Assembly: GCA_963706575.1 (NCBI GenBank) | Contig: CAVPNL010000006.1 | Span: 926,519-990,518 of the forward strand | Length of the DNA stretch: 64,000 nucleotides | Reading direction: 5' to 3' | Source: an uncultured delta proteobacterium | Lineage (GTDB): Bacteria; Desulfobacterota; Desulfobacteria; Desulfobacterales; JAHEIW01 | In this document: positions 27,001 through 30,000 of the stretch, one piece after another | Layout of the letters: each line of letters begins with the position of its first letter | Position numbering within the stretch: position 1 is the first letter of the stretch | Program-made: the position numbers

Positions 27001-30000
27001 CGGTATTTTTCGGGAAGCGTATAAATGGCTTCGTTGATCTTATCTAAAAGTTCATCGTTTAGCAGCTTATCCAGGGGCATCAGCGCCCATTTGGGAACCT
27101 GATCGGGAACTTCGGCTTCCTCCTGGGGGAAAAACTCATCCAGGGACAATTCCTGTTTCGGGGCGAATTTTGATTTTCGCCGCTTTTTAATGCACGTGCT
27201 GGCGGCCACCCGGTAGAGCCAGTTTTTAAATTTGGTTTCGTAGCGGAAATTCTTTAAATATCGAAAGACATTTAGAAAAGTTTCTTGAACCGTATCTTCG
27301 GCATCGGCCGTATTGCGACACATCCGCAGGCTGAAATTATACAGCTTTTGCTCGTACCGTTTGACAAGGTCCGAATAACGATCGAATTGGCCTGAATTGA
27401 TGGCCTGAATCAGCTCAAAATCTTTATCTTTTATCTTTTTGCGCTTCGCTGGCCTGGGTACTGTCATGGTTGCTTGTCACCTGACAAGAATTTTTCAGTC
27501 AGGTCGGAATGCCTAATTTTGGAAGAATATAGGCCTGCAGGAGAATCCAGATACCCGCAATGCCTAACATGATGATAAGCTCTTTCATAATCATACTCCT
27601 TGTAATTAATAAGATCTCAGCGGGCATTTGTCCACTGTTTTTTAAAAATCAGGCAGTAGGCGGTTACTATCAAGAATGTCATCACCAGTCCCAGATGGGC
27701 TAAATCCAGGAAGATAATAAACCGCGGCCCGAACTGGTTTCCTGCCAGATTTCGGATCACCAGCAATATGCCCGATACCAGAATGCCAGCCAGAATTGCG
27801 CCCCGGACGTAACCGGTGGCGGTCAGGCGAAGGTGTTTTTTTTGCAGAATCAGGTAGTCAATGGCCATGTAGGCCACCAGCGCCAGGATTAAAATTGCGG
27901 CCAGGTAATGAATATAATGGGTCACAAAAAATTGCGCCAGCCAGCCAAGACCGGGGATATCGGCAATGTAGTAGCGTTTAAAAATGGGCATTTGGCCGAA
28001 ACCGGTGAGGGTTAATAAAAAGACTGTTAACAAATAAACATAGCGAACGGTACGGTTGGGTACCTTTGATATAGCGGTTTGTTGCACTTTCATTTCTATA
28101 GGCTCCTTCGTTGCTATTCGCTGCTCTTTGTCAGTTTGACAAATTTTCCCACTGCTGCCGCAATTCCGGCCACCGGGGCAAGGATCATTGCAGTCGCCAG
28201 GTTGTTGGCCTGGGCCATGGTGTCTTTTACCGGTTTGAGGTGCGGCTTTCCTTTGCCCTTTTCAATGGCCTTATTCAGCTCTTCAAACGGCACCGGTGAA
28301 ACATAAATGGTATTGGTTCCGCCATTTTCTTTCTCACCGTAAATATAGCCGTTGGTTTCTTTGGCCAGCGCCCGCGCTTTTTGGATGATTTCATCCCGCG
28401 GCCCGATAGTCTGCATATCCTCGGGGCAGGCTTCGATGCAGGCCGGCAATTGGCCGTCTGCGATTTGGTCGTAGCAGCGGTCGCACTTGTACATCACACC
28501 GTTGCCGGCAAAGGACGGCAGAATATCAAGATACAGGCCTGTTCCTGTCTGGCGCTGCGGGATATCCCAGGGGCACACCTTTTTACACTTGGAACCCCCG
28601 AGACAAATATCGGAATCGATCCTGGATATACCATTGTCAAGCTGCCGCGCAGCGCCCCAGGGGCAGAGTTTTACACACGGCGGATTGACACAGTGCATAC
28701 AGCGTCGGGGCATTGTTATTTCCTGTTCTTCACCATTTAAATCAACAGTGGCATGTTGAATAAAAAGCCAGTTGTAGGGGGTTAGACGATCATCAACATC
28801 CTGCTTTTCCGACCAGTCTTCAACCGGCACCCGGTTGGGATACATTTTGGGAAATGGTTTAGGGGGATTGGGGTATTTATGAGCGTTGGTTTCATTACAG
28901 GCTTCCACACAGGCGCCGCAACCGATGCATTTACCGATGTCCAGCAAGGTCGCCAGCTGAGTTTTCCCCTGTGGTGCCGCTGCTGCGGAAGCACCCGGAA
29001 TGCTGCCGGCAGCCAGGCCGGCTGCTGCTGCGATTCCGCTTCTTAAAAATGTTCTTCTTGAAATTTCCTGCCCCAATTGTGATCTCCTTTCGGGTTAAAA
29101 GCATCCTAAGTACAGCATCGTTTTGAATCGTTTTCCTTAAAGAACCCGGTGTCTCAATTCGGTTACAAATTTCTTCTCATATATGGATATTTTTCTGATG
29201 AATAGGGTCTTTCGCAGGAATTAAAGCCAAGATGCATGCAACATAGCGGTAAAGCGGTCTCGCTTGCATTAAAGCGAACAAGAAGATGATATTTCAATGA
29301 TCGACAGTAAGATTTGATTGACTTGAACACCACCCATTGTGGTATTTGTAATTTGGGCTAAACTAAGAGAATCAAAATGAAACGCGAATTAATCATAGCG
29401 ACGTGTCAATTTCCGGTCAGTGGGGATATTAAAAGGAACGCGTCATACATTCTACGACGGATGGCAGAAGCAAAGGCAAAAGGGGCGGATGTATCTCATT
29501 TTCCTGAAAGCAGCCTCAGCGGATATGCCGGAACTGATTTTAAGCGTTACAAAAGTCAAGATGAGGACTTGTGCCTGGGTTCTAATAATCACTGTCATGG
29601 TCGCGATTCGTTGCCGGAAGATCAACCTGAATCAACTTCGTCCCGGAAAAATCACACCGGTAAAACCGGGCGCCTGTCATATTGCATAGGGCAATGGTCG
29701 CCTTGGAAAAATTACAAACTTCCAAATTAGCATCGTCGAATTCCGTGTGCCTGAAAACGGCCTGTTCAAATCGTGCCTCCTTCAAAAGAGCGGATGCAAA
29801 GCTGGCAAAGTGGAAACAGGCCCGGGCAAAATCGGTCCCGGTGCAAACGGACCGCCAGAACCACGTATTGTGCAAACAGGTATTTTTAAAAACGGCTGAT
29901 TCGAGGTTTGCTCCGGAGAAATTGGTGAATTGTAGATGGGCACCCGTTATGTTGGCCCCGGAAATGTTGGCGCCCGCAAGATTGGCCCACTGAAGTCCTG

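Follow-up and report, generated by a model that had tools for sequence, protein, structure and literature searches.

Closest described systems

RsrA–SigR is a thiol-stress switch built on a zinc anti-sigma (ZAS) protein, and to our knowledge no RsrA system has a third, membrane-tethered Sec/Cys partner gene heading the operon. Orp1(Gpx3)–Yap1 is a peroxidase-to-regulator redox relay, in which a highly reactive Cys protein takes up the oxidant and transfers its oxidized state to the cysteines of a regulator. SELENOK and SELENOS are short eukaryotic proteins with a single membrane helix, and their Sec sits near the C-terminus of a disordered tail in the cytosol. Two selenoproteins, TsoA (motif LULAxC; NF045695) and TsoB (rhodanese/DsbD-like, with UxxxxU; NF045694), were reported by Haft and Tolstoy 2025, as given in a table of PMC13188914.

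The window analyzed here was a 64,000-nt stretch (positions 926,519 to 990,518 of contig CAVPNL010000006.1, assembly GCA_963706575.1) from an uncultured member of Desulfobacterales. It contained a small gene at the head of an ECF sigma/anti-sigma pair. As judged from sequence comparison, the product of this gene is a selenoprotein of a large uncatalogued family, whose members outside Desulfobacterota carry Cys at the Sec position.

Small gene and its product

The small gene was organized as follows:
27596..27601 (-): Shine-Dalgarno sequence AAGGAG of the small gene, read from the sequence, 7 nt ahead of ATG
27424..27588 (-): gene of the small selenoprotein, 54 codons and a TAA stop, with TGA translated as U
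27499..27501 (-): in-frame UGA, predicted Sec30; TGA in this column in 57/57 aligned loci
27484..27486 (-): Cys35 codon, partner thiol five residues past Sec; TGT in 39 and TGC in 18 loci (n = 57)

The loci compared here and below are relatives of one another, and their counts are not counts of independent events. GGAG-type sites were located 6–9 nt ahead of the small-gene ATG in the orthologues. Translation of 27424–27588(-), with TGA as U, gave MKELIIMLGIAGIWILLQAYILPKLGIPTULKNSCQVTSNHDSTQASEAQKDKR, in which a transmembrane helix was followed by P23-K-L-G-I-P-T29-U30-L-K-N-S-C35-Q-V-T and a hydrophilic tail. This agreed with the read-through of TGA into a 54-residue single-pass membrane protein that had been claimed in the genome-wide survey's note, and so did the AlphaFold2 prediction, with a helix at residues 2–24 (pLDDT ~90) and the remainder at low confidence. 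The residues M1, L22, P23, K24, G26, T29, U/C30, and C35 were invariant in the orthologue alignments A1 and A2. By this layout, Sec30 is located about eight residues beyond the predicted membrane helix, with Cys35 after it in most members. The C-side of the helix carried more Lys plus Arg than the N-side in 91/98 family members; from this charge bias alone we infer an N-out/C-in topology, by which the reactive selenol would be placed towards the cytoplasm at the membrane surface. Contigs from the RNA libraries of four studies overlapped the small ORF, an overlap that shows neither translation, ends, nor strand, nor transcription with certainty.

Distribution of Sec and Cys forms

The small gene was matched in 124/151 Desulfobacterales genomes, and a profile search of the Desulfobacterota sample gave matches in 183/401 genomes; the wide spread with TGA described by the survey's note held, but its prevalence of 18/150 genomes did not, being 183/401 with the profile. 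A cultured carrier was found in Desulfocicer vacuolatum DSM 3385. The in-frame TGA was present in every listed match save a weak one due to chance; the sole Desulfobacterales match without TGA (G051:C72) lacked any motif-bearing ORF and was discarded as chance.

The same note had seen no Cys form, and this was wrong. Cys forms (T-C-M-S-G-A-C) were abundant in Planctomycetota, Omnitrophota, Acidobacteriota, Myxococcota, and other phyla, and 44 Cys-form loci (7 plus 37 more, the further loci being found by a degenerate DNA pattern) had a Cys codon TGY in the TGA column. Two chance matches of the pattern, L073 and L077, were excluded from the counts. An HMM search of the protein library gave 1491 cluster representatives at E<=1e-3, and the best 150 of them included 91 Cys forms, 28 entries ending at TGA, and 27 entries with TGA read as W/G. 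A word-index protein search with one Cys form found a single relative, and the sole match in the ESM Atlas was an unnamed Planctomycetota cluster at 0.89. The abundance of Cys homologues strengthens the selenoprotein call.

The Sec protein matched 0 families of NCBIfam 20.0 at E<=10 and gave one chance match in Pfam (E 0.064), and the Cys forms likewise matched no Pfam or NCBIfam model, so that the claimed absence from both databases extended to the whole Sec/Cys family. T-U-x4-C equaled no motif among the 119 selenoprotein families in Table 1 of PMC13188914, no such family was named in the examined passages of Peng 2016, and a literature search on the UxxxxC motif and on small membrane-spanning selenoproteins in sulfate reducers turned up nothing relevant. 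The motif with U-x4-C, as claimed, applied to most members but not to all: (i) a U-only subfamily had no Cys35 in 7/7 loci fetched and (ii) two loci had U-x5-C spacing. Since Cys35 is lacking from the U-only subfamily, an intramolecular U–C bond would not be a universal mechanism.

SECIS-like hairpin past the UGA

A hairpin was located downstream of the UGA codon:
27473..27488 (-): SECIS-like hairpin CUUGUC-AGGU-GACAAG, from RNA fold, pair counts, and compensatory changes

Its six-pair stem began 10 nt past UGA, the conserved inner five pairs 11 nt past it, and the loop AGGU 16 nt past it; this layout agrees with the bSECIS consensus that PMC13188914 quotes, namely an apical loop 16–37 nt from UGA and G in its first two positions. 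Across the 57 Sec forms, 86.5% of cells were paired, compared to 77.6±0.9% after shuffling (0/500 shuffles reached 86.5%) and 36.0% in the 44 Cys forms. All five inner pairs were kept in 39/57 Sec forms, 33/38 further Sec loci, and 0/44 Cys forms, while a hairpin loop at 14–20 nt with G in its first two positions was present in 47/57 Sec and 8/44 Cys forms. Two pairs covaried: pair 21–34 (CG 29, UA 22, UG 4) and pair 24–31 (UA 35, CG 17). The claimed hairpin with compensatory changes was thereby recovered. The U-only variants had other hairpins at the same location. With 5–6 bp, the stem is short. No consensus structure came from RNAalifold across the 57 sequences, and the single-sequence fold of the hairpin was not better than shuffles (z = -0.58). 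Going by the pair counts, the element is a minimal bacterial SECIS hairpin 11 nt past UGA, specific to the TGA forms.

Sec decoding

Past the TGA, frame 0 was open for at least 17 codons (range 17–43) in 57/57 loci, as against 7/57 and 16/57 for the other two frames, much more than chance would give. Codon +2 was represented by eight or more Lys/Arg codons from the AAR, CGN, and AGR boxes, codon +4 by Ala codons and by Ser codons of two boxes, TCN and AGY, and Cys35 was invariant across the 57 aligned Sec loci. Codon choice past TGA is, in this alignment, that of amino-acid-level selection on the protein sequence.

The host genome encoded selB (376.5 bits), selA (604.8 bits), and selD (380.3 bits), all above cut-offs, together with tRNA-SeC(tca); the selA, selD, and tRNA-Sec genes named by the survey's note were all found again, and selB was added to them. 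No selA was found in 30/401 genomes of the Desulfobacterota sample, eight of which carried the small gene; these carriers were not counted as a conflict, because full-length selB was present in 5/5 examined (the five most complete of the eight). Four features by which bacterial selenoproteins are recognized were found, namely, a conserved in-frame UGA with coding sequence beyond it, aligned Cys homologues, a stem-loop, and Sec machinery, and these, with the TGA column at 57/57 and the open frame, bore out the earlier selenoprotein reading. On this comparative evidence, the UGA of the small gene is decoded in frame as Sec, and the product is a genuine selenoprotein.

Sigma/anti-sigma cassette and promoter

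Three further features were identified around the small gene:
27610..27634 (-): candidate ECF-type promoter TGGAC-N16-CTTA, from motif, preceded by an A-rich stretch; within the 3'-terminal part of the ORF upstream
26850..27467 (-): gene for an ECF sigma factor, by Sigma70_r2 and r4_2 (Pfam) and TIGR02937 (NCBIfam)
26591..26863 (-): RsrA-like soluble zinc anti-sigma gene, zf-HC2 (Pfam 2.4e-8), 90 aa, without membrane segment

The sigma ORF overlapped the small-ORF tail by 44 nt, exactly as claimed for this locus, and the sigma ATG was located 9 nt past AGGUGA of the hairpin; a small-ORF/sigma overlap was found in all sigma-linked loci. The anti-sigma matched NCBIfam TIGR03988 (anti-sigma-R) at 7e-8, under its cut-off, and C13, H39, C43, and C46 were invariant in the zf-HC2 alignment A5. 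The order small gene–ECF sigma–RsrA-like zinc anti-sigma was the usual cassette in Desulfobacterales, occurring in 38/68 loci (15/30 plus 23/38), and the pair seen in 8/15 loci by the survey's note was hence the majority arrangement in this order. In another set, sigma and zf-HC2 genes were directly downstream in 4/27 Sec loci. The cassette was absent from about 45% of Desulfobacterales loci and from most phylum-level loci. A second, independent link came from the Planctomycetota Cys forms, which had an RsrA-like zf-HC2 gene 13–93 nt upstream in 7 loci, with conserved Zn ligands C, H, and C-x2-C. These arrangements point to a conserved operon linkage of the small gene with an ECF sigma/ZAS anti-sigma module. 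A predicted complex of the L068 Cys form, its zf-HC2 neighbor, and Zn scored 0.02, in a prediction made without control runs that speaks neither for nor against the pairing.

The promoter motif was present 40–99 nt upstream of the small-gene ATG in 12/19 sigma-linked loci (at 40–55 nt in 11 of these 12) versus 1/38 others, with a background of 6 matches in 335,113 nt. The candidate promoter was intergenic in L005, L021, L023, and L029, and in 8/12 loci it overlapped the ORF upstream at its conserved 3' end. A genome-wide scan gave 9 matches, about chance level, and no regulon was therefore found in the host genome with this motif.

Other neighbors

The Cys forms displayed three further neighborhoods: (i) a CoA-disulfide-reductase/rhodanese gene overlapping the small ORF in 10 loci; (ii) a DsbD_TM–thioredoxin gene 2–25 nt downstream in 5 loci, whose product matched the TsoB model at 1.1e-29, under its cut-off; and (iii) persulfide-dioxygenase–rhodanese, TauE, and type III SQR-like genes nearby in 3–4 loci. 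Metal-related neighbors were CopA-type P-type ATPases upstream in L005, L023, L028, and L029, NicO in L028, ArsA/ArsD in L064, MerR in L101, and ArsR in L096.

MobB/HD, HybA-like Fe-S plus cytochrome-b-like protein, CopA-type ATPases, Usp/DUF302, and RND pumps were also recurrent neighbors. The nearby RND pumps scored best as multidrug type, not as CusA/CzcA type.

Proposed function and rival explanations

The small protein probably has its part in sensing or handling sulfur/thiol stress at the cell membrane, a functional reading that is based on gene neighborhood only, the neighborhood itself being heterogeneous. In its specific form, we give about an even chance to a 54-residue membrane selenoprotein of a Sec/Cys family whose cytoplasm-facing selenol/thiol acts in thiol/reactive-sulfur stress sensing or relay. 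The Sec30 selenol would react with oxidants or sulfane sulfur (persulfide, polysulfide); a selenenyl-sulfide would be formed with Cys35, a second copy, or a partner; and the oxidized state would be handed on, possibly to the cysteine–zinc site of the soluble anti-sigma, in a redox relay that frees the sigma factor. Cytoplasmic reductases/sulfurtransferases (thioredoxin/DsbD, CoA-disulfide reductase–rhodanese) would be alternative recipients, and Sec in place of Cys would make a faster nucleophile in a sulfide-rich habitat. A rather unlikely extension takes the Sec/Cys protein and the RsrA-like zf-HC2 protein as a two-piece membrane anti-sigma system: the membrane selenol would relay reactive-sulfur/oxidant signals by selenenyl-sulfide exchange to the anti-sigma Zn–Cys site, and the Sec forms would add sigma translation coupled to Se-dependent read-through, a coupling proposed because the SECIS loop carries the sigma ribosome-binding site.

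The selenoprotein could instead be an effector tethered to the membrane, either accepting sulfane sulfur or serving as an antioxidant that scavenges peroxide or persulfide; it would be recycled by thioredoxin or CoA-persulfide-reductase-type enzymes and would be the first regulon member where the cassette is present. The Cys forms lying within sulfide-oxidation and thiol-reductase clusters that have no sigma or anti-sigma gene agree with such an effector, as do the many Desulfobacterales and phylum-level loci without the cassette and a promoter placed ahead of the small gene, which suits a regulon member; it was nevertheless considered doubtful, if possible, because the small protein is specifically paired with a soluble zf-HC2 protein in two phyla far removed from each other, and in different gene orders, which exceeds what is expected of an ordinary regulon member, and because AlphaFold2 predicted no catalytic fold. 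It is improbable that the product, though a real selenoprotein, binds soft metal/metalloid ions (Cu(I), Zn, Hg, As(III)) with its Sec/Cys, singly or as a dimer, and serves as a chaperone or sensor on the membrane side: no known metal-binding motif or Pfam family was matched, the U-only variants would give one ligand per chain, and the metal-related contexts listed above, which together with the zinc protein nature of the partner anti-sigma favor this explanation, are a minority, the nearby RND pumps fitting the multidrug type best.

It is very improbable that the small ORF is mainly a Se-sensing leader, with UGA read-through or hairpin-bound SelB controlling how the overlapping sigma gene is translated. 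The Shine-Dalgarno-like AGGUGA of the sigma gene is indeed carried by the hairpin loop, the sigma ATG lies 9 nt further within the small-ORF tail, and all sigma-linked loci share the overlap, but the small protein is under amino-acid-level selection, the same protein is kept in Cys forms without UGA, and many Sec loci have no downstream sigma gene. Hardly credible is an ordinary stop at UGA, giving a 29-residue micropeptide followed by conserved non-coding RNA: against the 28 of the best 150 library entries that gene callers end at TGA stand the Cys codons aligned to TGA in 44 loci, the frame 0 open in 57/57, the use of both Ser boxes and mixed Lys/Arg codons past TGA, the restriction of the hairpin to loci where the codon is TGA, and the full Sec machinery of the genome.

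Significance

Annotation pipelines overlook the small gene owing to its tiny size and its internal UGA, yet with 124/151 sampled genomes it is among the most prevalent selenoprotein genes of Desulfobacterales, and adding it corrects the selenoproteome counts of sulfate-reducing bacteria. The Sec/Cys family, spread over many phyla without a name, would be a new family of small membrane proteins built around a single reactive residue. Its recurrence alongside RsrA-type anti-sigma factors and persulfide/thiol enzymes offers a concrete, testable handle on membrane sensing of reactive sulfur or thiol oxidation, and D. vacuolatum DSM 3385 makes such tests feasible.

Comparison with known systems

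The comparison was applied to the UxxC/CxxU thioredoxin-fold selenoproteins as listed in Table 1 of PMC13188914, with which the small protein shared the Sec/Cys alignment, a second Cys nearby, and a bacterial SECIS hairpin; the thioredoxin, DsbD, and CoA-disulfide-reductase genes among the neighbors here added to the likeness with these redox selenoproteins. The small protein differed from them in three respects: it is predicted by AlphaFold2 to have no thioredoxin fold but one helix plus a flexible loop, its spacing was four residues, five in 2 loci, or U alone, rather than two, and it matched none of the family models. TsoA and TsoB, as tabulated in PMC13188914, had in common with it a short Sec-to-Cys/Sec spacing outside the CxxU rule and a link to rhodanese and DsbD-type proteins, but the small protein matched neither model at E<=10, and its spacing and flanks (T-U-[LM]-x-x-[SA]-C) were different.

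Orp1(Gpx3)–Yap1 and the small Sec protein would share their proposed logic only, there being no homology between them and the relay here being a proposal. SELENOK and SELENOS had no sequence relation to the small protein, and its Sec is located beside the membrane, but all three are short single-pass proteins with Sec in the tail. As for the RsrA–SigR switch, the anti-sigma here scored under the TIGR03988 cut-off, but this 90-aa neighbor resembled RsrA in keeping the C...H-x3-C-x2-C ligands, having no membrane segment, and being paired with an ECF sigma factor.

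The small selenoprotein gene and its surroundings

The small gene and its neighbours in the window were organized as follows.

27588-27424, minus strand: small selenoprotein gene; translation with TGA as U, MKELIIMLGIAGIWILLQAYILPKLGIPT-U-LKNSCQVTSNHDSTQASEAQKDKR-stop
27499-27501, minus strand: UGA codon of the small gene
26850-27467, minus strand: ECF sigma factor ORF, with its ATG within the tail of the small ORF
26591-26863, minus strand: zf-HC2 protein of 90 residues, closest to anti-sigma-R factor (TIGR03988, 7e-8, below cut-off)
27617-28093, minus strand: cytochrome-b-like membrane protein of 158 residues, upstream of the small gene
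28114-29076, minus strand: Fe-S protein with four clusters and a TAT signal, HybA/HmcB-like, upstream of the small gene
25993-26535, plus strand: DtxR-type iron-dependent repressor gene, flanking the cassette
29582-30364, minus strand: pentapeptide-repeat protein gene, flanking the cassette

An AAGGAG site was located 7 nt 5' of the small gene's ATG. Confident AlphaFold2 prediction was limited to helix 2-24, the remainder being flexible. In 91 of 98 members of the family, Lys plus Arg were in excess C-terminal to this helix. By the positive-inside rule, this distribution suggests a probable N-out/C-in topology, in which the reactive residue would face the cytoplasm at the membrane surface.

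Reading of the UGA codon

Across all 57 distinct loci, U was residue 30 when counted from an ATG preceded by a GGAG-type site, in agreement with the constant TGA position claimed in the genome-wide survey's note. Frame 0 stayed open for 17-43 codons past the TGA in 57/57 loci, while the other two frames reached 16 codons in 7/57 and 16/57 only. The codons past the TGA show selection at the protein level: codon +2 was AAA/AAG mixed with CGN and AGR, codon +4 comprised Ser codons from both boxes plus Ala codons, and codon +5 was Cys without exception. The source genome encoded selA, selD, and tRNA-Sec, as noted in the survey, and also selB; selB was present as well in each of five carriers without detectable selA. 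Its selD (L119, contig C5) was itself a TGA selenoprotein gene (...AGSG-U-ASK...), and a second, split selD-like locus was found on contig C3. Taken with the Cys homologues and a hairpin specific to TGA forms, the open frame and codon choice bear out the proposed read-through, and the small protein is very probably a selenoprotein, an assignment as firm as comparative genomics allows.

SECIS-like hairpin

The hairpin had the stem CUUGUC/GACAAG and loop AGGU, with the inner five pairs starting 11 nt and the loop 16 nt past the UGA, a position fitting the bacterial SECIS consensus quoted in PMC13188914. The survey's claim of compensatory changes held in the 57-sequence alignment: 86.5% of cells were paired versus 77.6+-0.9% after shuffling (0/500 shuffles) and at most 73% with slid partners as control, and two pairs covaried, namely (i) pair 21-34, switching between C-G (29) and U-A (22), and (ii) pair 24-31, switching between U-A (35) and C-G (17), the latter combining a silent third-position change in the Cys codon with a Thr-to-Ala/Gly replacement. 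The decisive control came from 44 Cys forms: only 36.0% of cells in the same columns were paired, and all five inner pairs were intact in 0/44 Cys forms versus 39/57 Sec forms. These pairs were also intact in 33 of 38 further Sec loci, and a similarly small hairpin (5-bp CCAGG/CCUGG) was present in selD of the source genome, a known selenoprotein gene. RNAalifold gave no consensus structure for the 57 sequences, and the single-sequence fold was not exceptional.

Distribution and residue-30 variants

With the single small protein as query, 124/151 genomes of the order (95/112 of high quality) had a match, which accords with the reported presence in most Desulfobacterales; a profile of 30 orthologues (alignment A1) matched 183/401 genomes of the phylum sample. 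The in-frame TGA was present in every match listed, bar one weak match; no ORF of that kind existed at the latter's site, and it was rejected as a family member. The Sec-form DNA pattern matched at least 120 records; among the 80 listed, titles were nearly all Desulfobacterales, Desulfobacteraceae, or Thermodesulfobacteriota, and the cultured isolate Desulfocicer vacuolatum DSM 3385 was included. The contig carrying one Sec form (L166) belongs to a MAG that is labelled Candidatus Margulisbacteria, another phylum, which may reflect mis-binning or gene transfer.

The survey had seen no Cys form, and this did not stand: a peptide-pattern scan gave 7 Cys loci, and a DNA pattern gave 37 more from Planctomycetota, Omnitrophota, Acidobacteriota, Myxococcota/Polyangia, Nitrospirota, and unclassified MAGs. 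Among 1.84 billion representatives, a profile search returned 1491 at E<=1e-3; in the best 150 of these, residue 30 was Cys in 91, W or G in 27 (which is TGA under other translation tables), R in 3, and S in 1, and 28 entries ended exactly at the TGA. The Arg or Ser entries (P0032, P0044, P0075, and P0106), seen in protein entries alone, may represent true substitution or unusual reading. P23, T29, C/U30, and C35 were invariant, and W14, L22, and G26 nearly so, in Sec and Cys forms alike.

A U-only subfamily (L247-L253, from phylum genomes G376, G479, G493, G194, G288, G264, and G212; ...LP[KR]xG[VI]xT-U-[LM]-[VKR]-P...) lacked the Cys five residues past U and had different residues after U, each member with its own strong hairpin 14-20 nt past the UGA, unlike that of the other Sec forms but equally placed; these forms show that residue 30 alone is essential. 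In two order genomes (L254 and L256), the spacing from Sec to Cys was longer by one residue (U-L-K-E-S-[SN]-C), with a shifted hairpin register.

Sigma cassette and other neighbours

The ECF sigma/anti-sigma neighbourhood described in the survey recurred: sigma plus zf-HC2 genes, in the orientation of the small gene, lay 3' of it in 15/30 best order loci, in 4/27 further loci from the phylum-level search (L035, L038, L051, and L054), and in 23/38 additional, more distant order loci (detected by home-built HMMs). The motif TGGAC-N15-18-C[GTA]TA preceded the small gene's ATG in 12/19 sigma-linked loci versus 1/38 others (background, 6 matches in 335 kb), at a distance of 40-99 nt (40-55 nt in 11 of the 12); it was intergenic in four loci, partly overlapped a conserved ORF end in others, and defined no regulon across the source genome. 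The loop and 3' arm of the hairpin formed AGGUGA (27473-27482) 9 nt 5' of the sigma ATG (27465-27467), so that the SECIS may double as the ribosome-binding site of the sigma gene, making selenium-dependent translational coupling possible.

Independently of this cassette, seven Planctomycetota loci had an RsrA-like zf-HC2 gene ahead of the Cys form, at a distance of 13-93 nt, and the C...H-x3-C-x2-C ligands were kept in the zf-HC2 proteins of both this set and the sigma cassette. A single open frame at L108:2130-2972(-) encoded a zf-HC2 domain and, C-terminal to it, sigma-70 regions 2 and 4, which may be a fusion or may result from crude ORF calling; it was flanked by two thioredoxin genes and a Cys-form small gene.

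Other neighbours of Cys forms were as follows: (i) in 10 loci, a CoA-disulfide-reductase/rhodanese gene that overlapped the small ORF and often came after an RND pump; (ii) in 5 loci, Trx, small gene, and DsbD_TM-Trx in that order; (iii) in 3-4 loci, Rhodanese-YgaP, persulfide-dioxygenase-rhodanese, small gene, TauE, and type III SQR-like gene; and (iv) in 3-5 loci, Usp, small gene, DUF302, and PIG-L. The HybA-like plus cytochrome-b-like pair, which in the window had no catalytic subunit gene beside it, was conserved upstream of the small gene in 13/57 loci; other upstream genes of Sec loci varied (MobB/HD in 6-7 loci, CopA-type ATPase in 4). Within one family of the phylum (L039-L048 and L052), the small gene was flanked on one side by a 3D-domain protein gene and on the other by a conserved ORF of 142-143 residues that belonged to no known family, with moaE adjoining; MobB was upstream of the small gene in six other loci, linking it there too with molybdenum-cofactor genes.

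Novelty and likely function

The survey's statement that the protein belongs to no Pfam or NCBIfam family applied to Sec and Cys forms alike: the small protein matched 0 NCBIfam models at E<=10 and had only a chance Pfam match, Cys forms (named only 'hypothetical protein') matched no family in either, and no model for the family existed in NCBIfam 20.0 or Pfam. Text searches, whose scope did not extend to Haft and Tolstoy 2025, Haft and Gwadz 2023, the deep-Sep paper, or older supplements, gave no published mention of the family, and an earlier mention may exist there. Table 1 (119 selenoprotein families) of a 2026 review (PMC13188914) had no motif matching the small protein. In the source genome, the small gene sits at the head of a predicted ECF sigma/RsrA-like anti-sigma operon. 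The protein may be an effector rather than a sensor, or a metal binder instead; because thiol, persulfide, and zinc-thiolate proteins of the cytoplasm recur as its partners, its most likely role is that of a membrane-tethered reactive selenol/thiol in the sensing or relay of thiol-oxidative or reactive-sulfur stress.
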